DNA from: a virus
Taxonomy: Duplodnaviria; Heunggongvirae; Uroviricota; Caudoviricetes
Direction: 5' to 3' (one strand)
DNA: 31,427 nt
Virus record (IMG/VR): IMGVR_UViG_2667527789_000018
Location: 1-31,427 of that record
A program made the position numbers and the translations under genes. Numbering within the stretch: the first letter of the stretch is position 1; each line of letters begins with the position of its first letter. This document shows positions 1-31,427 of this stretch, one piece after another. The notes below the pieces were generated by a model. The model was not told the origin of the DNA. It saw only the letters and a program-made list of their open reading frames with translations, and searched no databases.

Positions 1-1011
1 TTATAACGTCACTCCGCCTTTTAGTGGATTCAGAGCGACGGCATTTTGCAGATAGTCAGGCGCAAGGTGCGCATAGGCCATCGTCTGCTGAATGCTCGCA
101 TGTCCCAGAATCTGTTGCAGTGCGATTATATTGCCCCCATTCATCATGAAATGGCTTGCGAATGTATGCCGCAGGATGTGGGTTGCCTGATTGGGTGGTA
201 TATCAGGTTTCACTCTGCGTAAAATCCCGCAAAATTTCTCATAATCAACTTTGAATAATTTGGCGCTGGCCTCCTCTTTAACTTTTTTCTCCAGTTCCTC
301 AGAAATCGGCACGGTTCGCTTTTTACCGTTTTTGGTTTTCAGGAAGGTAACCCTGCAATTTGTAATCTGTGCTGGTTTTAGCGTGGCAACTTCCGTCCAT
401 CTTCCTCCAGTGCTCAGACATAAAAGCGCGACAAGTAAGTCATCACCAGCCAAAACATTTAACAGTTTTTCGATTTCTGCTTTTTCCAGGAACGTCATTT
501 CAGGGTTGGCCTCCGCCAGTGGCGGCAGTCCGTGAATTGGGTGTTGCCCGGAAAATTCATCCAATTGAATTAATTTTGTGAACATGCCGGATAATCTGTA
601 CATGTCACGGTTTATCGTTGAGGCACTGATACCATCACGTAGTCGCATGGAACGATAATCCATCAAAGCCCTTTTGCTCATCCTGCTCACTGGTATATCA
701 CCTATGCCGCTGATGGTTTTGAGTAGATGATTAAACTCTTTTGTTCCATGCTCGTGGTTTTGCCCGTGATATTTCCACCAGATGTCCAGCAACTCACTCA
801 AAGTCCGGCGGTCTGCTCGCTGGCCTCCCCATTCTTTCTGACTGGCATTGGCGATTGTGTATCGCTCAAATGCTAGTGCTTCAGCTTTTCTTTCGAATTT
901 CCTGCGGATGCGTTTTCCGTCGCGACCGCGAGGTCTAATGTCCACTTCATAGCGACCATCATCGAGCTTCTTAATTGCCATAAGAAAGCCCTCCGGCGCT
1001 GTATTCACCAT
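1..1011 (-). CDS. int: tyrosine integrase (P2 Int family)
   Basis: 336-aa ORF ending at a TAA whose complement is bases 1-3; C-terminal tyrosine-recombinase-like region (HILRHTFASH...GHASIQQTMAYAHL); located at prophage end beside repressor. An alternative ATG at 981 (MAIKKLDDGRYEV) has a better SD (GGAGGG), so the true start may be 981. Confidence 0.9.
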   Translation of the reverse strand: MVNTAPEGFLMAIKKLDDGRYEVDIRPRGRDGKRIRRKFERKAEALAFERYTIANASQKEWGGQRADRRTLSELLDIWWKYHGQNHEHGTKEFNHLLKTISGIGDIPVSRMSKRALMDYRSMRLRDGISASTINRDMYRLSGMFTKLIQLDEFSGQHPIHGLPPLAEANPEMTFLEKAEIEKLLNVLAGDDLLVALLCLSTGGRWTEVATLKPAQITNCRVTFLKTKNGKKRTVPISEELEKKVKEEASAKLFKVDYEKFCGILRRVKPDIPPNQATHILRHTFASHFMMNGGNIIALQQILGHASIQQTMAYAHLAPDYLQNAVALNPLKGGVTL

Positions 1012-3509: not shown

Positions 3510-5784
3510 AGCCTCCGGGCGTTTTGTCCCTCCGTCAGCATTTGCCGCAGGCACCGGTAAGGCGTTTACTGGTGCTTATGCATGGAACGCGCCACGCGAG
3601 GCTGTCGGGCGCGAAAGACCCCTTACACGTGACGAGATGCGTCAGGTGCAAGGTGTTTTATTCACGATTAACCGCCTGCCTTACTTTTTGCGCTCGCTGT
3701 TTACTTCACGCTATGACTACATCCGGCGCAATAAAAGCCCGGTGCACGGGTTTTATTTCCTCACATCCACTTTTCAGCGTCGTTTATGGCCGCGCATTGA
3801 GCGCGTGAATCAGCGCCATGAAATGAACACCGACGCGTCGTTGCTGTTTCTGGCAGAGCGTGACCATTATGCGCGTCTGCCGGGGATGAATGACAAGGAA
3901 CTGAAAAAGTTTGCCGCCCGTATCTCATCGCAGCTTTTCATGATGTATGAGGAACTCTGCGATGCATGGGTTGATGCACATGGCGAGAAAGAATCGCTGT
4001 TTACGGATGAGGCTCAGGCGCATCTGTATGGTCATGTTGCTGGCGCTGCACGAGCTTTCAATATTTCCCCTCTCTACTGGAAAAAATACCGTAAAGGACA
4101 GATGACCACGAGGCAGGCATATTCTGCCATTGCCCGTCTGTTTAACGATGAGTGGTGGACTCATCAGCTTAAAGGTCAGCGTATGCGCTGGCATGAGGCG
4201 TTACTGATTGCTGTCGGGGAGGTGAATAAAGACCGTTCTCCTTATGCCAGTAAACATGCCATTCGTGATGTGCGTGCGCGCCGCCAGGCAAATCTGGAAT
4301 TTCTTAAATCGTGTGACCTTGAAAACAGGGAAACCGGCGAGCGCATCGACCTTATCAGTAAGGTGATGGGAAGTATTTCTAATCCTGAAATTCGCCGGAT
4401 GGAGCTGATGAACACCATTGCCGGTATTGAGCGTTACGCCGCCGCAGAGGGTGATGTGGGGATGTTTATCACGCTGACCGCGCCGTCAAAGTATCACCCG
4501 ACACGTCAGGTCGGAAAAGGCGAAAGTAAAACCGTCCAGCTAAATCACGGCTGGAACGATGAGGCATTTAATCCAAAGGATGCGCAGCGTTATCTCTGCC
4601 GCATCTGGAGCCTGATGCGCACGGCATTCAAGGATAATGATTTACAGGTCTACGGTTTGCGTGTCGTCGAGCCACACCACGACGGAACGCCGCACTGGCA
4701 TATGATGCTTTTTTGTAATCCACGTCAGCGTAACCAGATTATCGAAACCATGCGTCGCTACGCGCTCAAAGAGGATGGCGACGAAAGAGGAGCCGAGCGA
4801 AACCGTTTTCAGGCGAAACACCTTAACCGGGGCGGTGCTGCGGGGTATATCGCGAAATACATTTCAAAAAATATCGACGGCTATGCACTGGATGGTCAGC
4901 TCGATAACGATACCGGCAGACCTCTGAAAGATACTGCCGCGGCTGTTACTGCATGGGCGTCAACGTGGCGCATCCCGCAATTTAAAACGGTTGGTCTGCC
5001 GACAATGGGGGCTTACCGTGAACTACGCAAATTGCCTCGCGGCGTCAGCATTGCTGATGAGTTTGACGAACGCGTCGAGGCTGCACGCGCTGCCGCAGAC
5101 AGTGGCGATTTTGCGTTGTATATCAGTGCGCAGGGTGGGGCAAATGTCCCGCGCGATTGTCAGACTGTCAGGGTCGCCCGTAGTCCGTCGGATGAAGTTA
5201 ACGAGTACGAGGAAGAAGTCGAGAGAGTGGTCGGCATTTACGCGCCGCATCTCGGCGCGCGTCATATTCATATCACCAGAACGACGGACTGGCGCATTGT
5301 TCCGAAAGTGCCGGTCGTTGAGCCTTTGACTTTAAAAAGCGGCATCGCCGCGCCTCGGAGTCCTGTCAATAACTGTGGAATGCTCACCGGTGGTGATACT
5401 TCGTTACCGGCTCCCACACCTTCTGAGCACGCCGCAGCAGTGCTTAATCTGGTTGATGACGGAGTTATCGAATGGAATGAGCCGGAGGTCGTGAGGGCGC
5501 TCAGGGGCGCATTAAAACACGGCCTGAGAACACCTAATCGTCAGCAAAGAAACGGAAGCCCGTTAAAACAGCATGAAATAGCGCCATCGGCCAGACTGAC
5601 CCGGTCGGAACGAATGCAAATCACCCGTATCCGTGTTGACCTTGCTCAGAACGGTATCAGGCCGCAGCGATGGGAGCTTGAGGCGCTGGCGCGTGGCGCG
5701 ACCGTAAATTATGACGGGAAAAAATTCACGTATCCGGTCGCTGATGAGTGGCCGGGATTCTCAACGGTAATGGAGTGGATATAA
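3499..5784 (+). CDS. A: rolling-circle replication initiator endonuclease gpA
   Basis: First ATG at 3499 (MAVKASGRF) gives 761 aa, the P2 A length I recall; HUH-type motif HWHMMLF and tandem-tyrosine motif YIAKYISK seen in the translation. The tracked ORF begins at an upstream TTG (3457). Confidence 0.9.
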   Translation: MAVKASGRFVPPSAFAAGTGKAFTGAYAWNAPREAVGRERPLTRDEMRQVQGVLFTINRLPYFLRSLFTSRYDYIRRNKSPVHGFYFLTSTFQRRLWPRIERVNQRHEMNTDASLLFLAERDHYARLPGMNDKELKKFAARISSQLFMMYEELCDAWVDAHGEKESLFTDEAQAHLYGHVAGAARAFNISPLYWKKYRKGQMTTRQAYSAIARLFNDEWWTHQLKGQRMRWHEALLIAVGEVNKDRSPYASKHAIRDVRARRQANLEFLKSCDLENRETGERIDLISKVMGSISNPEIRRMELMNTIAGIERYAAAEGDVGMFITLTAPSKYHPTRQVGKGESKTVQLNHGWNDEAFNPKDAQRYLCRIWSLMRTAFKDNDLQVYGLRVVEPHHDGTPHWHMMLFCNPRQRNQIIETMRRYALKEDGDERGAERNRFQAKHLNRGGAAGYIAKYISKNIDGYALDGQLDNDTGRPLKDTAAAVTAWASTWRIPQFKTVGLPTMGAYRELRKLPRGVSIADEFDERVEAARAAADSGDFALYISAQGGANVPRDCQTVRVARSPSDEVNEYEEEVERVVGIYAPHLGARHIHITRTTDWRIVPKVPVVEPLTLKSGIAAPRSPVNNCGMLTGGDTSLPAPTPSEHAAAVLNLVDDGVIEWNEPEVVRALRGALKHGLRTPNRQQRNGSPLKQHEIAPSARLTRSERMQITRIRVDLAQNGIRPQRWELEALARGATVNYDGKKFTYPVADEWPGFSTVMEWI

Positions 5785-5895: not shown

Positions 5896-7734
5896 ATGAG
5901 CGAGTTCGATGTTTTTTCTATTTCAGTTGATGATTTTAAAAAAAGTGAGTACGCCAGTATATTGTTACCACCAAGAAGCCATTCTTATTTTGAAATGGAA
6001 TCTTATTTTTTTCAGTTGTTGTCATTTTATAAGCAAAAAAAAGATGTGAGTTCTTGGAGGGTTTGCTATTTATTACGTTCGTTATTTAGTTTAAAATTTT
6101 CTAAGTCTGGTGATATTATCGACTTTGAGTCTAAAATCATTCTCTATCCTAAGCGAGGTTATAGACCTTCAGATTACAAGGATAATTATTTAACCATATT
6201 AACTTGTATTAAAGAAAATACTGACAACCCTTATATTATATCTAGGGTGTGTGATGTTTTATGGATAAATAACCGTAAGGATATAGATTCTGCTAATAAA
6301 GCAATAGAGTCATATGCTCTAATGATTAATGATGCTTGTGATACTTTGTTAGAAAAAAAGGAATCAGGTGACATCCATGTTTTTGATGTCGTTGACTGCT
6401 TGGATAGAGGTATTACAATATCGCGCATGCTTATTGGCAGGAAAAAACAACTGCAAGGAGGGATAGTTGACTCGACGTTAAGGCTATATCATATATTAAT
6501 AGATTCTAGTATATTTATCGGTGTTTTAAGAATTTCTGAAATTCTTTATAAGAATAATTTATTGTGCCCCTTACAATTGGCTAAGAATGCAGAAAAGATA
6601 GCTGATGAGCATTGTGGAGCTTCTTATTTTGATGCTGTGAAAAAATTGTTTTATTTTGCGTCTGAATTATATGTTAAAAATGATATGGAAGAGCAAGGAA
6701 GAAGGTGCAAAATGAAAGCGACAGAAATAACATTGGCTCAATTTGAACAGTCTTCATCTCCAACATTGAAGGCTCATTGGCTAAGAGTTGCTCTTGGGGA
6801 ATTTAGAGCGATTGGTGGAATGAGTGAAAGGATTAAAGAGATTAAAGAGGAATTAAATTCTATTCGAGATCAAATCAATGATGAAATGTATTCCTTTGCA
6901 ATACCAATGGATCTTAGTGATGTTATCGCTCAGAAAGAGCATATTTATAATCAATTAAATTTCTCAGAAATAATTAAAAAATTAATCTCTAGATTTAAGG
7001 TTGTAAGTGCCAGTGAGATTATGGAAAGAGCTCGCTCTGATGCTAAGAGATATTTTTTTGTTAATGTGAGTGATACGGTTTTTTATGATGACAGAGGACG
7101 CGTTGTGGCAAGGCAACCACCTTTAGATTCTGCTGGGGATATAAGTCTAGATGATGCCTGTGTAAATTATTTAAGAACTAGTAATATTGAGCATCAGTTT
7201 TATGTTTATGGTGAGTTTGAAGTTGTTAGGCAAAGAGTGTTGTCTAGGTATTCATTAAATGAGAATACATTTGACCCAATCTCACAACAAAGTCTATTTG
7301 TTCCTCCTGGGTATGCGGAAATATTTTCTTTAGGATTTCTTAAGCTTTGGCAGGGGGATTATGTGTCTGCCTGTTATTTGTTGTTGCCGCAGTTGGAGAA
7401 TTCAATTAGATGGATTTTAGAATTAAGAAGAAAAGAAACAACGAAAATAGATGTGTCACTTTTTGAGGAGGCTACTAGTCTATCTCAAATGCTTGCAAAT
7501 TATAAGAGTGAAATGGAAGGTATTTTTGGGAGTGATCATGTATTGACTATGGATTTATTGTTCAATATGAAAGGTGGTGCTGCAATTAGACACACGATGG
7601 CTCATGGCAGGTATACTGTAAATCATTGTTATCAACCAACTTCAGTTTTTGCCTGTGTCTTTATCTTTTATTTAACTTGTTTGCCTTTATTTAGTGTATG
7701 GGAAGATAAAGTTGAACCTTATCTGACTGATTAA
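5896..7734 (+). CDS. AT-rich accessory (cargo) protein of unknown function, 612 aa; candidate anti-phage defence protein
   Basis: ATG 5896 preceded by AGGTGAGGA; about 32% G+C in a 60-nt sample versus about 57% in phage genes; occupies the tin/old position of P2; no P-loop; C-terminal R-x4-H motif (AIRHTMAHGRY). Confidence 0.8.
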   Translation: MSEFDVFSISVDDFKKSEYASILLPPRSHSYFEMESYFFQLLSFYKQKKDVSSWRVCYLLRSLFSLKFSKSGDIIDFESKIILYPKRGYRPSDYKDNYLTILTCIKENTDNPYIISRVCDVLWINNRKDIDSANKAIESYALMINDACDTLLEKKESGDIHVFDVVDCLDRGITISRMLIGRKKQLQGGIVDSTLRLYHILIDSSIFIGVLRISEILYKNNLLCPLQLAKNAEKIADEHCGASYFDAVKKLFYFASELYVKNDMEEQGRRCKMKATEITLAQFEQSSSPTLKAHWLRVALGEFRAIGGMSERIKEIKEELNSIRDQINDEMYSFAIPMDLSDVIAQKEHIYNQLNFSEIIKKLISRFKVVSASEIMERARSDAKRYFFVNVSDTVFYDDRGRVVARQPPLDSAGDISLDDACVNYLRTSNIEHQFYVYGEFEVVRQRVLSRYSLNENTFDPISQQSLFVPPGYAEIFSLGFLKLWQGDYVSACYLLLPQLENSIRWILELRRKETTKIDVSLFEEATSLSQMLANYKSEMEGIFGSDHVLTMDLLFNMKGGAAIRHTMAHGRYTVNHCYQPTSVFACVFIFYLTCLPLFSVWEDKVEPYLTD

Positions 7735-8083: not shown

Positions 8084-9118
8084 TCAGCCGTTGTCAGTGT
8101 CCAGTGAGTAGTTTTTAAAGCGGATGACCTCCTGACCGAGCCAGCCGTTTATTTCCCGAATTCTGTCCTGTAACGGGATAAGCTCATTGCGGACAAAGAC
8201 CTTTGCCACTTTCTCAATATCTCCCAGTGACCCGACGTTCTCCGGCTTGCCGCCCATCAACTGAAAGGGGATACGGTGCGAGTCCAGCAGGTCAGCGGTG
8301 CTGGCTTTTTTGATATTAAAAAAATCGTCCTTCGTTGCCACTTCACTGAGCGGGATAATTTTAATGCCGTCGGCTTTTCCCTGCGGGGCATAGAGAAACA
8401 GATTTTTAAAGTTGTTGCGGCCTTTCGACTTGACCATGTTTTCGCGAAGCATTTCGATATCGTTGCGATCCTGCACGGCATCAGTGACGTACATGATGTA
8501 TCCGGCATGTGCGCCGTTTTCGTAATACTTGCGGCGGAACAGCGTGGCTGACTCATTCAGCCAGGCAGAGTTAAGGGCGCTGAGATATTCCGGCATGCCG
8601 TACAGCTCCTGATTAATATCCGGCTCCAGCAGATGAAACACGGAGCCGGGCGCGAAGGCTGTCGGCTCGTTGAAGGACGACACCCACCAGTAAACATCCT
8701 CCTCCACGCCACGGCGGGTATATTTTGCCGGTGAGGTTTCCAGTCTGATGACCTTACCGGTGGTGCTGTAACGCTTTTCCAGAAACGCATTACCGAACAC
8801 CAGAAAATCCAGCACAAAGCGGCTGAAATCCTGCTGAGAAAGCCACGGATGCGGAATAAACGTTGAAGCCAGAATATTGCGTTTAACGTAAATCGGCGAG
8901 CTGTGATGCACGGCAGCACGCAGGCTTTTTGCCAGACCGGTAAAGCTGACCGGTGGCTCATACCATCTGCCGTTACTGATGCACTCGACGTAATCCAGAA
9001 TGTCACGGCGGTCGAGAACCGGCACCGGCTCGCCAAAGGTGAATGCCTCCATTTTCGGTGCACTGGCGGTCATTGTTTTTGCCGCAGGTTGCGGTGTTTT
9101 CCCTTTTTTCTTGCTCAT
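8084..9118 (-). CDS. Q: portal protein gpQ
   Basis: 344 aa (P2 Q length as recalled); leftward operon Q-P next to cos; start ATG overlaps P stop (ATGA on minus strand). Confidence 0.9.
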   Translation of the reverse strand: MSKKKGKTPQPAAKTMTASAPKMEAFTFGEPVPVLDRRDILDYVECISNGRWYEPPVSFTGLAKSLRAAVHHSSPIYVKRNILASTFIPHPWLSQQDFSRFVLDFLVFGNAFLEKRYSTTGKVIRLETSPAKYTRRGVEEDVYWWVSSFNEPTAFAPGSVFHLLEPDINQELYGMPEYLSALNSAWLNESATLFRRKYYENGAHAGYIMYVTDAVQDRNDIEMLRENMVKSKGRNNFKNLFLYAPQGKADGIKIIPLSEVATKDDFFNIKKASTADLLDSHRIPFQLMGGKPENVGSLGDIEKVAKVFVRNELIPLQDRIREINGWLGQEVIRFKNYSLDTDNG

Positions 9119-19756: not shown

Positions 19757-22012
19757 ATGAGCACAAAATTCAAAACCGTTATCACCACTGCCGGTGCAGC
19801 AAAGCTGGCAGCGGCAACCGCACCGGGAGGGCGGAAGGTCAACATTACCACGATGGCCGTCGGGGATGGCGGTGGTAAATTGCCTGTCCCGGATGCCGGA
19901 CAGACCGGGCTTATCCACGAAGTCTGGCGACATGCGCTGAACAAAATCAGTCAGGACAAACGAAACAGTAATTATATTATCGCAGAGCTGGTTATTCCGC
20001 CGGAGGTGGGCGGTTTCTGGATGCGTGAGCTTGGCCTGTACGATGATGCGGGAACGTTAATTGCCGTGGCGAACATGGCCGAAAGTTATAAGCCAGCTCT
20101 TGCCGAAGGTTCAGGGCGTTCGCAGACCTGCCGCATGGTCATCATCGTCAGCAGTGTGGCCTCAGTGGAGCTGACCATTGACACCACAACGGTGATGGCG
20201 ACGCAGGATTACGTTGATGACAAAATTGCAGAGCACGAACAGTCACGACGTCACCCGGACGCCTCGCTGACCGCAAAAGGTTTTACTCAGTTAAGCAGTG
20301 CGACCAACAGCACGTCTGAAATGCTGGCCGCAACGCCAAAAGCCGTTAAGACGGTAATGGATGAAACGAACAAGAAAGCGCCATTAAACAGCCCTGCACT
20401 GACCGGCACGCCAACGACGCCAACTGCGCGACAGGGAACGAATAATACTCAGATCGCAAACACGGCTTTCGTTATGGCCGCGATTGCCGCCCTTGTAGAC
20501 TCGTCGCCTGACGCACTGAATACGCTGAACGAGCTGGCGGCGGCGCTGGGCAATGACCCGAATTTTGCTACCACCATGACTAATGCGCTTGCGGGTAAGC
20601 AACCGAAAGATGCTACCCTGACGGCGCTGGCGGGGCTTGCTACTGCGGCAGACAGGTTTCCGTATTTTACGGGGAATGATGTTGCCAGCCTGGCAACCCT
20701 GACAAAAGTCGGGCGGGATATTCTGGCTAAATCGACCGTTGCCGCCGTTATCGAATATCTCGGTTTGCAGGAAACGGTAAATCAGGCTTCTGGCGCATTG
20801 CAGAAAAATCAGAACGGCGCGGATATTCCTGATAAAGATCGCTTCCTGAGTAACATTAATGTTTACAGCAAAGGCGAGGTGGATAAGAAAAAAGGAATGC
20901 GGCAGTACGTATTTAACGCGCCGTCTAATGCTGTTGGTGGAAAGTGGTATCCAGTTATTTTCCGGCGTTCCACTGGTAGCACTGGCGAACTGGCTTCCAG
21001 AGTGGTTATTACAACCACATCTGCCGGTGGTGATTACGCAATGAATAACTGCGAATTTAATGGAATGGTAATGCCCGGAGGTTGGACTGATCGTGGTTCA
21101 TATGCAGCAGGTTATTTTTCGACATATCAGACTAATGAGCGCGCAATCCATTCCATTGTAACAAGCCTGAAAGAAGATGATGTATGCAGCGTTTTTTACG
21201 TTGAAGGCAGGGCTTTTCCTGTGCGAGTTTTTGCCGAAGAAGGGCTAACGGTTATTGTTCCAACTCAGGATTATACCGTCGGTCAAACAACATATAAGTG
21301 GGGAGCAACTAATCCCGCGACAGAAAGCACGAACGCACAAGCCATTCTGGATTTTAACAATGGGCGAGGGTTTTATTGTTCTCACTCAATATTCGGTATT
21401 AATGCCATTTTTAGCGGAAATCTGGGGATTGGAACGGCTAATGCCCTGGGGGGAAATTCAATAGTTTTAGGAGATAACGATACTGGGTTTAAACAAAATG
21501 GTGATGGGGTGCTGGATGCTTATGCTAATGGTGTGCATGTATTCCGCTTTAGAAATGGCTCAGCAATATCATTAAAGGGTATTCAAGCTGGGGAAAGTAA
21601 GTTATTCACACTTTCAAGTGCAAATACCGCTGCCCATAATGCATCATTTAACTTGTGGGGAAATTCGTCAAGACCAACTGTTGCAGAGCTTGGTGATGAT
21701 TCAGGCTGGCATTTCTATAGTCAGCGAAATACAGATAACTCGGTGACATTTGCTGTAAACGGTCAGATACAACCAAGCAGCTGGGGTAACATTGATTCCA
21801 GATATGTGAAAGATGTTCGGCTTGGCTCACAGCAATATTATGGTGTGAACAACTGGCAAACATGGAACTTCCAGTGCCCTTCAGGTCATGTATTGTCTGG
21901 TATAAATGTTCAGGATACAGGTTCCAACTCCGCCGATAATATTGCGGGTGTTTATTACAGACCCGTTCAAAAGTATATAAATGGCACATGGTATAATGTA
22001 GCGAGCGTTTAA
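19757..22012 (+). CDS. H: tail fibre protein gpH with divergent, lower-GC C-terminal receptor-binding region
   Basis: 751 aa; conserved N-terminal part ([20 protein letters not shown]...), G+C drops from about 63% (near 19800) to 42-48% (21300-21660); followed by the fibre assembly chaperone. Confidence 0.88.
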
Positions 22013-22013
22013 T

Positions 22014-22541
22014 ATGATGCACTTAAAGAACATAAAAGCGGGTAACGCTAAAACACTGGAACAGTATGAGTTAACAAAGAAGCATGGAGTCATCTGGCTT
22101 TACACTGAAGACGGGAAAAACTGGTATGAGGAAGTGAAGAACTTTCAGTCAGACACAATAAAGATTGTTTACGATGAAAATAATATTATTGTCGCTATCA
22201 CCAGAGATGCTTCAACGCTTAATCCTGAAGGTTTTAGCGTTGTTGAGGTTCCTGATATTACCTCCAACCGACGTGCTGACGACTCAGGTAAATGGATGTT
22301 TAAGGATGGTGCTGTGGTTAAACGGATTTATACGGCAGATGAACAGCAACAACAGGCAGAATCACAAAAGGCCGCGTTACTTTCCGAAGCGGAAAGCGTT
22401 ATTCAGCCACTGGAACGCGCTGTCAGGCTGAATATGGCGACGGATGAGGAATGCGCACGACTGGAGTCATGGGAACGCTACAGCGTTCTGATCAGCCGTG
22501 TGGATCCTGCAAATCCTGAATGGCCGGAAATGCCGCAATAA
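22014..22541 (+). CDS. G: tail fibre assembly chaperone gpG
   Basis: 175 aa immediately after H; C-terminus [23 protein letters not shown] as I recall for P2-family G. Confidence 0.85.
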
Positions 22542-22593
22542 GTTGTATAAGCTCTGGTGTGAGATTACATATCTATGGCACAGAGTAAAGCCT

Positions 22594-22603
22594 AATCTGA
22601 CAG
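22594..22603. repeat. left copy of 10-bp inverted repeat AATCTGACAG flanking the G-FI cargo
   Basis: AATCTGACAG at 22594-22603; its exact reverse complement occurs at 23493-23502. Confidence 0.5.
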
Positions 22604-22762
22604 GCCGCTCTGTGTCTGGAGTAGATTTTAGTAAAGCATTATTTTATTAGTGCAAATTCTAATCAATACATTTTATGTATATGATATCCTGCGGACTTTA
22701 ATGACTTGGTTTAGGCTAACCAGATAACACTGAAGGAATATTTTTGATAATTAAGGTGCGGT

Positions 22763-23356
22763 ATGTTTACTAAGCGACGATTAAAAAATATTAACTGGGA
22801 GGCAAGTTCAGTGATTCTTGCTATGGTTCTCTTTGTTGGAAATATATTTTATACAAATCATCGTGATGATATAAACATGGAGGCTGAGAGAGACAGTATC
22901 AGAACAATGTTTGCATATGAAATCGCTAATAACCATCGCGCTCTCACTTTTCTTGATAAAACGAGACATATTGGCTTTGACGAAAATTCGGAGCATTTTG
23001 TTGGCGAGCCTTTTGCCATTAATGTCAAATCATTAGGGGGACCTCGCTTACAGATTGCATTAAACCAGACTGATAAAGTGTTTAAATCCTACTTCGGCGA
23101 ATTAAGTAAGCTTGATAAAGAGGATGTTACTCTTCTTATGGACTATTACCATGAGCAAAGCATCCTGCTGGAGCGTGTAAAATCTACGTTACAGAAGATG
23201 AAAAGTGGTAATGATATTAAAGTTGATATTGATGGTTACTTATTAGAAGAACACTTCATGAATGAGCTTAATCTTTCTAATATATTGCTTAAACGCTATA
23301 GCTATTTATTATCACAACACGCTAAAGAACATAAAACAAAAGATTTACATAATTGA
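22763..23356 (+). CDS. AT-rich accessory membrane-anchored protein, 197 aa, in the Z/fun hotspot; candidate superinfection-exclusion or defence protein
   Basis: About 32% G+C in a 60-nt sample; N-terminal hydrophobic helix (SSVILAMVLFVGNIFY) then a charged soluble domain; occupies the G-FI intergenic slot where P2 carries Z/fun. Confidence 0.7.
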   Translation: MFTKRRLKNINWEASSVILAMVLFVGNIFYTNHRDDINMEAERDSIRTMFAYEIANNHRALTFLDKTRHIGFDENSEHFVGEPFAINVKSLGGPRLQIALNQTDKVFKSYFGELSKLDKEDVTLLMDYYHEQSILLERVKSTLQKMKSGNDIKVDIDGYLLEEHFMNELNLSNILLKRYSYLLSQHAKEHKTKDLHN

Positions 23357-23492
23357 TAATCTGCTAATGGTTATTCATGGGGTAACTATGTTTTATATGT
23401 AATCCAGCTCAGATGAATTATTGATTCTGGATAATAACCGCAGAGCGGCATATACCCTGACAGGCAAATGTCCGCTTCTTGCTCAAAGCAGA

Positions 23493-23502
23493 CTGTCAGA
23501 TT
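23493..23502. repeat. right copy (inverted) of 10-bp repeat AATCTGACAG
   Basis: CTGTCAGATT at 23493-23502 is the reverse complement of 22594-22603; additional CTGWCAG copies at 23457-23463 and 23526-23532. Confidence 0.5.
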
Positions 23503-23544
23503 TGATAACTTTTGGGCTATGTAAACTGTCAGTCGGAAAATGAG

Positions 23545-23562
23545 TGTGTACAAATCAGGACA
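23545..23562 (+). promoter_or_regulatory. candidate Ogr-dependent late promoter element (TGT-N12-ACA dyad) for the FI operon
   Basis: TGT(23545-23547)-N12-ACA(23560-23562), about 130 bp upstream of the FI start; P2 late promoters carry a TGT-N12-ACA dyad near -55. Confidence 0.35.
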
Positions 23563-23685
23563 GGCGGGCGAATTGCCCGCATTTTCTTTATCTGTTGTTT
23601 CATCCACTGACCAGCCAGGTCAAATAGCGTCTCATGCTCTGCACAACAGAAAATAGTTGCACCCATTAACCACGGAGTTAAACGG

Positions 23686-24876
23686 ATGAGTGACTATCAT
23701 CACGGCGTGCAGGTGCTGGAGATTAACGACGGCACCCGCGTCATTTCCACCGTATCCACGGCCATTGTCGGCATGGTCTGCACGGCCAGCGATGCAGATG
23801 CGGAAACCTTCCCCCTCAATAAACCGGTGCTGATTACCAATGTGCAGAGCGCAATTGCAAAGGCCGGTAAAAAAGGCACGCTGGCGGCATCGTTGCAGGC
23901 CATCGCTGACCAGTCAAAACCGGTCACCGTTGTCGTGCGCGTGGAAGACGGCACCGGCGACAATGAGGAAACGAAACTCGCGCAGACCGTTTCCAATATC
24001 ATCGGCACCACCGACGAAAACGGTCAGTACACCGGACTAAAAGCCCTGCTGGCGGCGGAGTCGGTAACCGGTGTTAAACCGCGTATTCTCGGTGTGCCGG
24101 GACTGGATACCAAAGAGGTGGCTGTTGCACTGGCATCCGTCTGTCAGAAGCTGCGCGCTTTCGGGTATATCAGCGCATGGGGCTGTAAAACCATTTCCGA
24201 GGTGAAAGCCTACCGTCAGAATTTCAGCCAGCGTGAGCTGATGGTCATCTGGCCGGATTTCCTCGCATGGGATACGGTCACCAGTACCACCGCCACCGCG
24301 TATGCCACCGCCCGTGCGCTGGGGCTGCGCGCTAAAATCGACCAGGAGCAGGGCTGGCATAAAACGCTGTCCAATGTCGGGGTGAACGGTGTTACCGGCA
24401 TCAGCGCCTCTGTATTCTGGGATTTGCAGGAGTCCGGTACTGATGCTGACCTGCTTAACGAGTCAGGCGTCACAACGCTGATTCGCCGCGACGGTTTCCG
24501 CTTCTGGGGTAACCGTACCTGCTCTGATGACCCGCTGTTCCTCTTTGAAAACTACACCCGCACCGCGCAGGTGCTGGCCGATACGATGGCTGAGGCGCAC
24601 ATGTGGGCGGTGGACAAGCCCATCACCGCAACGCTGATTCGCGACATCGTTGACGGCATCAATGCCAAATTCCGAGAGCTGAAAACAAACGGCTATATCG
24701 TGGATGCGACCTGCTGGTTCAGCGAAGAATCCAACGATGCGGAAACCCTCAAGGCCGGAAAACTGTATATCGACTACGACTATACACCGGTGCCTCCTCT
24801 TGAAAATCTGACCCTGCGCCAGCGTATTACCGATAAATACCTGGCAAATCTGGTCACCTCGGTTAACAGCAATTAA
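23686..24876 (+). CDS. FI: contractile tail sheath protein gpFI
   Basis: 396 aa; GGAG SD; followed by the tail tube gene. Confidence 0.92.
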   Translation: MSDYHHGVQVLEINDGTRVISTVSTAIVGMVCTASDADAETFPLNKPVLITNVQSAIAKAGKKGTLAASLQAIADQSKPVTVVVRVEDGTGDNEETKLAQTVSNIIGTTDENGQYTGLKALLAAESVTGVKPRILGVPGLDTKEVAVALASVCQKLRAFGYISAWGCKTISEVKAYRQNFSQRELMVIWPDFLAWDTVTSTTATAYATARALGLRAKIDQEQGWHKTLSNVGVNGVTGISASVFWDLQESGTDADLLNESGVTTLIRRDGFRFWGNRTCSDDPLFLFENYTRTAQVLADTMAEAHMWAVDKPITATLIRDIVDGINAKFRELKTNGYIVDATCWFSEESNDAETLKAGKLYIDYDYTPVPPLENLTLRQRITDKYLANLVTSVNSN

Positions 24877-30443: not shown

Positions 30444-30524
30444 ATCCTCAATTTGCCTGCTGCTTAATGCATTGCAGATGATTTGCTTCCGTTATACTAG
30501 CGTCAGTTGATAGCGGGAGTATTT

Positions 30525-31427
30525 ATGAATCAATCTTATGGACGGCTGGTCAGTCGGGCGGCGATTGCTGCGACGGCGATGGCTTCGCTGCTATTGCTGA
30601 TTAAAATTTTTGCATGGTGGTATACCGGGTCGGTGAGTATTCTCGCCGCGCTGGTGGATTCGCTGGTGGATATCGGCGCGTCGTTGACGAATTTATTGGT
30701 GGTGCGATATTCCCTGCAACCTGCCGACGATAATCACTCGTTTGGTCACGGTAAAGCTGAGTCCCTCGCGGCGCTGGCGCAAAGTATGTTTATCTCCGGT
30801 TCGGCACTATTCCTGTTTTTGACGGGTATTCAACATCTGATATCTCCAACACCGATGACAGATCCAGGCGTCGGGGTTATCGTGACAATTGTGGCGCTAA
30901 TTTGTACGATTATCCTTGTCTCGTTTCAGCGTTGGGTGGTGCGGCGGACGCAAAGCCAGGCGGTGCGGGCTGATATGCTACATTACCAGTCTGATGTTAT
31001 GATGAACGGCGCAATTCTGCTGGCGCTGGGGTTGTCCTGGTACGGCTGGCATCGCGCCGATGCTCTGTTTGCATTGGGAATCGGCATCTATATTTTATAT
31101 AGCGCGTTACGCATGGGATATGAGGCGGTACAGTCATTACTGGATCGCGCATTGCCTGATGAGGAACGGCAAGAAATTATTGATATCGTGACTTCCTGGC
31201 CGGGTGTTAGCGGCGCTCACGATCTTCGCACGCGGCAGTCAGGGCCGACCCGCTTTATTCAGATTCATTTGGAAATGGAAGACTCTCTGCCTTTGGTTCA
31301 GGCACATATGGTGGCGGATCAGGTAGAGCAGGCTATTTTACGGCGTTTTCCGGGATCGGATGTAATTATCCATCAGGACCCCTGTTCCGTCGTACCCAGG
31401 GAGGGTAAACGGTCTATGCTTTCATAA
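30525..31427 (+). CDS. fieF: cation diffusion facilitator ferrous-iron/zinc efflux transporter FieF (YiiP)
   Basis: 300 aa from ATG 30525 ([25 protein letters not shown]...), recognised as enterobacterial FieF; CDF-type [10 protein letters not shown] motif; the tracked ORF begins at upstream TTG 30507. Confidence 0.92.

Follow-up and report, generated by a model that had tools for sequence, protein, structure and literature searches.

The tail fibre locus described here lies in a P2-like (Peduovirus) prophage of Escherichia coli. The window, by which we mean the whole stretch of 31,427 nucleotides that was analysed, is 99.7% identical over positions 782–31427 to the prophage of strain RM11911, which adjoins the host genes fieF and pfkA. 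At the left end of the prophage there is an integrase gene on the minus strand (window 1–1011), and at the right end, after ogr, the host gene fieF begins at 30507 (window 30507–31427), which indicates an insertion next to fieF/pfkA, as in RM11911. The late operon follows the order V-W-J-I-H-G and then FI, in agreement with the P2 map and with the RefSeq annotation of the RM11911 prophage. The tail fibre gene H (19757–22012, plus strand) is an open reading frame for 751 residues, and the difference in length from P2 H that the initial annotation had noted is real, as the P2 protein has 669 residues (NC_001895, 12734–14743). The protein starts with the N-terminal tail-collar fibre domain for baseplate attachment (Pfam Phage_tail_fib, PF12571) at residues 1–151 (E = 2.6e-58; 196.7 bits against a cut-off of 23), followed by one Phage_fiber_2 repeat at residues 170–210. 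Immediately downstream, 2 nt past the H stop codon, gene G (22014–22541, plus strand) encodes a tail fibre assembly protein of 175 residues with a Caudo_TAP domain (PF02413, E = 1.9e-36). NCBIfam returned no family for H, for G, or for the two open reading frames of low G+C content that are described further below.

H is close to the P2 protein over residues 1–342 only and not throughout. The best full-length relative among deposited phages, the fibre of Peduovirus P22H4 and phage 9W, is 58–61% identical overall. The constant part, comprising baseplate attachment and shaft (19757–20781, plus strand), belongs to the P2 lineage with 96.5% DNA identity to P2 H. In sliding windows, its identity to P2 is 93–100% except at a missing repeat unit, and 98–100% just before the junction (to 20781). 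Past nucleotide 20781, the identity is lost over the next few bases; it climbs back only to about 72%, over 21383–21825, and reaches 98–100% again at about 22127, inside G. The block that is replaced relative to P2 thus covers about 20782–22115, or about 1.33 kb, corresponding to the last 409 codons of H and the first 30–35 codons of G. Residues 343–547 of H are unrelated to P2 H, and residues 548–751 are 62% identical.

The shaft shows variation of its own. Its 44-residue Phage_fiber_2 unit (20264–20386, residues 170–210) is present in one copy here, in two copies in P2 and P2_AC1, and in four copies in P22H4, so that fibres can differ in length whichever tip they carry. The shaft region 20400–20788 is 92–93% identical to part of the lambdoid side tail fibre genes of many E. 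coli genomes, where the matches are annotated as 'prophage tail fiber N-terminal domain-containing protein', and the constant part adjacent to the junction therefore also crosses phage types.

The initial annotation had been led to this gene by its base composition, and a formal analysis with sliding windows and a change-point model did find a break. The maximum-likelihood change point in H is at nucleotide 20747 (2-log-likelihood support interval 20649–20850), with a G+C content of 55.7% before it and 43.5% after it, and its log-likelihood ratio of 16.6 exceeds all values from 500 codon shuffles (maximum 12.5). The reported 63% near the 5' end had to be corrected to 53–58%, with no 300-nt window in H above 58%, and the tract of low G+C does not start at 20850, but at about 20750, roughly 100 nt earlier, and extends past H over the 5' half of G (39%) and a 197-residue open reading frame (34%) up to FI. 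The compositional shift is largely synonymous, because GC3 drops from 59% to 36%, and GC1 and GC2 fall too. The H gene of P2 itself has the same break at the homologous position, from 56% to 43%, and the break is a family-wide trait that is not special to this prophage. Because P2 H drops alike, low G+C is no evidence of exchange relative to P2, and we rejected the idea that low G+C alone marks H as foreign. As to protein composition, the noted richness in Gly, Asn, Ser, Trp, and Tyr was confirmed, with 37.2% in residues 343–751 versus 20.5% in residues 1–342, and the repeats that had been ascribed to the C-terminal part were found there neither by Tandem Repeats Finder nor by protein self-BLAST.

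The variable part is in its turn a mosaic of at least three sub-modules that have very different frequencies in E. coli genomes. It begins with an S'-type leader (residues 343–365; 20782–20851, plus strand) that follows the S' (G-minus) arm of phage Mu, and the Mu S/S' chimera 8ju3 matches H over residues 331–368. The leader is followed by a beta-rich domain of 187 residues that we term module A (residues 366–552; 20852–21412, plus strand). Module A is not in the P2 H alignment, and it is because of this module that H is longer than the P2 protein despite having one shaft repeat fewer. It is 60–84% identical at the amino acid level to fibres of P22H4, of Nonagvirus HdSG1, of a P1 relative, and of the lambdoid phage mEp332, and it is common to myo- and siphophage fibres. 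All homologues that were found are at least 60% identical to the copy in the window, most of them at least 75%. Coverage of the module reaches 80% or more in 147 of 5426 E. coli genomes, and 62 of these places are on plasmids. With an HMM profile of the module, no relative was detected among the PDB sequences (a nanobody came up as a chance match with E = 0.88), the AlphaFold model of the module alone was of low confidence (pLDDT 54, pTM 0.59), and the best Foldseek hit of this model against the PDB (E = 0.28, TM 0.25) was disregarded.

The distal tip (residues 553–751; 21413–22009, plus strand) is of the P2 H/Mu S type and 62% identical at the amino acid level to residues 473–669 of P2 H. Comparison with known receptor-binding structures, as suggested by the initial annotation, was successful at the level of sequence, since residues 590–750 match the Mu tail fibre protein S (PDB 5YVQ_A, E = 8.6e-21), and unsuccessful by prediction, since the AlphaFold2 model of residues 343–751, based on an 18-sequence alignment, reached a mean pLDDT of 48. 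The last 184–230 nt of the tip are 93–94% identical to a tip end that occurs in many E. coli genomes, and the final approximately 60 residues resemble the P22H4/P24E6b type. A coverage of at least 80% of the region 21398–21968 is seen in 46 E. coli genomes only.

The exchanged segment reaches into the chaperone gene. G is 92% identical to P2 G at the amino acid level, and it matches Mu U (PDB 5YVQ_B) over residues 1–175 with E = 1.5e-100. Its 5' end (22014–22115, plus strand), which forms part of the exchanged cassette, has about 70% DNA identity to P2, with 68–87% in sliding windows. Of the 14 amino acid differences from P2 G, 10 fall into residues 1–31 and 4 into residues 32–175, so that G indeed keeps the P2-like C-terminus that had been expected. 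The summary of the Mu Tfa structure in PMC9608196 describes a variable N-terminal domain that binds the fibre tip, a conserved C-terminal domain that drives trimer assembly, and a Tfa that stays on the virion. These domain roles fit the observed pattern, in which co-variation with the tip is confined to the N-terminus of G. By analogy, G probably folds the trimeric C-terminal fibre domain as a Tfa chaperone, and the variable part of H would set the cell-surface receptor, and hence the host range, of this allele.

At the border between the constant and the variable part, inside the fibre reading frame, there is a relic of an invertase crossover site of the gix/cix type, TTATCGAATATCTCGGTTTGCAGGAA (20748–20773, plus strand), which encodes VIEYLGLQE. 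It agrees at 22 of 26 positions with Mu gix, TTATCCAAAACCTCGGTTTACAGGAA, as taken from both G-segment boundaries of NC_000929, and at 24 of 26 positions with the corresponding site of the invertible P2-like prophage of E. coli O145, as read from the expressed arm. Together with the next 8 nt (to 20781), the site is the counterpart of the 34-bp inverted repeat of the Mu G segment, and the G+C change point coincides with it. In an alignment of seven sequences, P2 H and the H described here are identical through the site and the following 8 nt, and they split at the same nucleotide as the Mu S and S' arms; beyond this junction, P2 follows Mu S (G-plus; ETVNRAGNAVQKNGD), whereas this H follows Mu S' (G-minus). 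A generic site pattern has its single match in the window at 20748–20773, the pattern being weakly significant with a match in 14 of 100 shuffles, and the resemblance to gix is in part a by-product of homologous coding sequence (IQNLGLQE versus IEYLGLQE). The left half-site has two changes in the AAACC block that is conserved in Hin/Gin sites, and the site may therefore be inactive.

A second type of junction exists in the fibres of P22H4 and of the prophage in the LB858871 chromosome, which have no gix-like site and join the shaft to the variable part via the repeated motif LQK(D/N)QNGADIP (window 20799–20801). The motif occurs on both sides of gix in Mu, and many E. coli alignments begin at window positions 20799–20801.

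The fibre is fixed and not switchable, because the window lacks an invertase gene, a further site, and an alternative arm. Neither Mu Gin nor the O145 invertase has a tblastn match in the 31.4-kb window, and the U' and Sv' proteins of Mu and O145 matched the single H and G genes alone, with no second arm. No crossover site other than that at 20748–20773 was found in the window, and the region 19757–23686 contains no long inverted repeats.

The same cassette is present in other backbones. Positions 20792–22525, which comprise the whole cassette, are 94.6% identical at the DNA level to the Sv plus U arm in p3_LB858871, a P1-like plasmid whose C segment is invertible and belongs to the P1 type with S, U, and Cin. 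On this plasmid, the cassette adjoins a recombinase gene and lies between inverted repeats of 552 bp or more, a minimum because the arm extends to the limit of the region that was scanned. The difference from our prophage lies in a fibre constant part and a virion backbone that are unrelated to P2. Positions 20744–22534 are 93% identical to a silent arm beside a recombinase gene in the P2-like prophage of E. coli O145 RM10425, whose inverted repeats (4962–5063 and 8197–8298 of the segment L011) correspond to window 20744–20845, and the IMG/VR contig L120, which encodes a Gin homologue and contains the site region a second time in inverted form, carries the cassette with 94% identity in the expressed orientation. 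These invertible prophages resemble the window in their P2-type constant part of H, in the site, and in the cassette, but they possess a Gin-family recombinase gene and two arms, whereas the window has one fixed arm. In the P2-like prophage of the LB858871 chromosome, the cassette is fixed, as here, with 97.7% identity.

With the Mu G segment (S/S', U/U', gix, and Gin), this locus has in common the junction at the same site, the S'-like leader, a G protein that differs from Mu U at 21 of 175 residues, and a C-terminal H domain homologous to Mu S, but a Gin homologue, a second gix, and an alternative arm are missing in the window, and module A is in neither S nor S'. The P22H4/9W fibre is similar in module A (84% identity) and at the extreme C-terminus, but it has four shaft repeats, is joined by LQKxQNGADIP in place of a gix-like site, is unlike in the middle of the tip, and comes with a G that is only 70% identical. 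P2 itself agrees in the order I-H-G-FI, in residues 1–342, in the position of the gix-like site, in the type of G+C break, in most of G, and in a related distal tip, and it differs by its S-type leader, the lack of module A, a second shaft repeat, the 62% identity of the tip, and the first 31 residues of G.

The cassette and the junction recur in further records. In the protein database, the same 409-residue C-terminus is found with 96–100% identity on N-terminal parts of differing length, and one of these proteins is annotated as 'bcv protein'. The 34-nt site occurs in at least 119 IMG/VR contigs, and among the matches listed there are 101 complete variable parts that follow it. With a threshold of 90% identity, they group into 22 clusters, and 14 clusters have at least two members. 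Nearly all variable parts among these listed matches have 295–421 residues, with the one described here being the longest and rare, and a Gin homologue is present in 16 of the 42 listed contigs that have the same site and at least 4.5 kb downstream. In a spread sample of 60 of the 1425 matching records from complete E. coli genomes, the alignment ends cluster at 20766–20788 and 20839–20856. The junction of our prophage is contiguous in 22 of 5426 E. coli genomes only.

Given what was observed directly, namely how H is divided into modules, where it breaks from P2, that its cassette recurs elsewhere, that a relic of the site is retained, and that the window has no invertase, H is very probably a modular P2-type fibre with an exchanged 'variable S plus U' cassette that is joined at a fossil site and fixed. 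The N-terminal 342 residues would be of P2 ancestry and supply the baseplate attachment domain and the shaft, and the C-terminal 409 residues, together with the first 30–35 codons of G, would constitute a host-range cassette that entered as one block of about 1.33 kb, with its left junction exactly at the fossil Gin/Cin-type crossover site. In P1-like plasmids and other P2-like prophages, this cassette represents one arm of invertible fibre segments. As to the route, homologous recombination between conserved flanks seems most likely, the left flank being the shaft with the gix-like region and the right flank the 3' two-thirds of G, which are conserved. Invertase-mediated exchange seems less likely. 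The horizontal exchange of a host-range module that the initial annotation had deduced is hence supported, by the sequence comparison and not by G+C.

Among the alternatives, the installation of the cassette at the gix-like site by a Din-family invertase acting in trans, with e14 and P1-like plasmids as examples of a source, fares best, as the left junction is the inner end of the Mu-type 34-bp repeat to the nucleotide. We nevertheless regard this as improbable. The right junction lies in ordinary conserved coding sequence inside G where there is no site, the left half-site is degenerate, and the long flanks of 90–100% identity suffice for homologous recombination. Moreover, Din-family invertases strongly prefer intramolecular inverted sites with an enhancer. 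Much less probable still is rapid diversifying evolution in place, in which amino acid composition would account for divergence and low G+C and no horizontal exchange would have occurred. The enrichment in Gly, Asn, Ser, Trp, and Tyr, the fall of GC1 and GC2, and the like break in P2 H, which makes composition a property of this sequence class, are compatible with such a process, but the shift in GC3 is largely synonymous, the identity to P2 drops from 98–100% to none within a few nucleotides, and the block is 93–95% identical at the DNA level in P1-like plasmids and other prophage backbones. That the locus is an active, phase-variable switch of host range, comparable to the G segment of Mu or the C segment of P1, can practically be dismissed, and we rejected it, as the gix-like site at the constant/variable junction and the Gin homologues of same-site contigs are outweighed by the single site in the window, by the tblastn searches that revealed neither an invertase nor a second arm there, and by the region downstream of G, in which P2-like sequence is followed by the 197-residue open reading frame and then FI.

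The exchanged, fixed cassette remains our preferred reading, and there are two further ideas to which we attach little probability. The gix-like site of 'fixed' P2-type fibres might still be a substrate for invertases in trans, and module A, which has no solved relative and occurs in fibres of both myo- and siphophages, might be a separate receptor-binding domain. If the former were true, e14, P1-like plasmids, or invertase-bearing P2-like prophages could supply the invertase in trans, and non-switching prophages could capture or donate host-range cassettes by site-specific recombination.

Mosaic fibre genes with recombination-site-like borders are common to P2, Mu, P1, and lambda and have been a classical theme since the 1990s; Haggard-Ljungquist et al. 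(J Bacteriol 174:1462) reportedly dealt in 1992 with the P2 genes H and G and with mosaic tail fibres among phages, and Sandmeier is said to have made a proposal on recombination-site-like sequences at the borders of fibre modules in 1994. Our prophage adds one more allele of a known kind, with a clean junction and module A as its distinctive traits, and it leaves the current understanding unchanged. It offers a nucleotide-level example of host-range change in P2-like prophages, in which the variable part of H and the fibre-binding N-terminus of G form the unit of exchange, with a fossil invertase site as the left border, and it permits a subdivision of entries that are annotated as 'phage tail protein' into constant part, leader, module A, and tip. 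In PMC8986868, Sandmeier is cited to the effect that the ends of these host-specificity segments carry invertase sites as well as sequences resembling them. There is also a practical side, as P2/P4 particles can be directed to new hosts by P2 H chimeras that have their fusion point at P2 residue 370 and are expressed along with the cognate chaperone (PMC9942202). The natural junction corresponds to P2 residue 386, at a distance of about 25 residues from the empirically best fusion point, which is useful for the engineering of P2/P4 delivery particles.

Two open reading frames of low G+C content outside the fibre genes deserve mention. One of them (5896–7734, plus strand; 612 residues, 33% G+C) lies between the replication and portal genes, in the interval that is the old/tin hotspot described in PMC9122126, and it has matches to Pfam DUF7380 and to the PADLOC candidate defence family PDC-S39 (E = 1.4e-73). 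The other (22763–23356, plus strand; 197 residues, 34% G+C) lies between G and FI, which starts at 23686, where P2 has fun(Z). Searches of Pfam, PADLOC, and NCBIfam gave no match for it, and phrog_3829, a family of unknown function, was the only assignment. Peduovirus P24E6b and the LB858871 prophage have the same reading frame. It encodes a hydrophobic stretch near the N-terminus, and it is flanked by a promoter-like site (22724–22751) and a terminator-like hairpin (23564–23580); it may be a lysogenic-conversion or exclusion gene.
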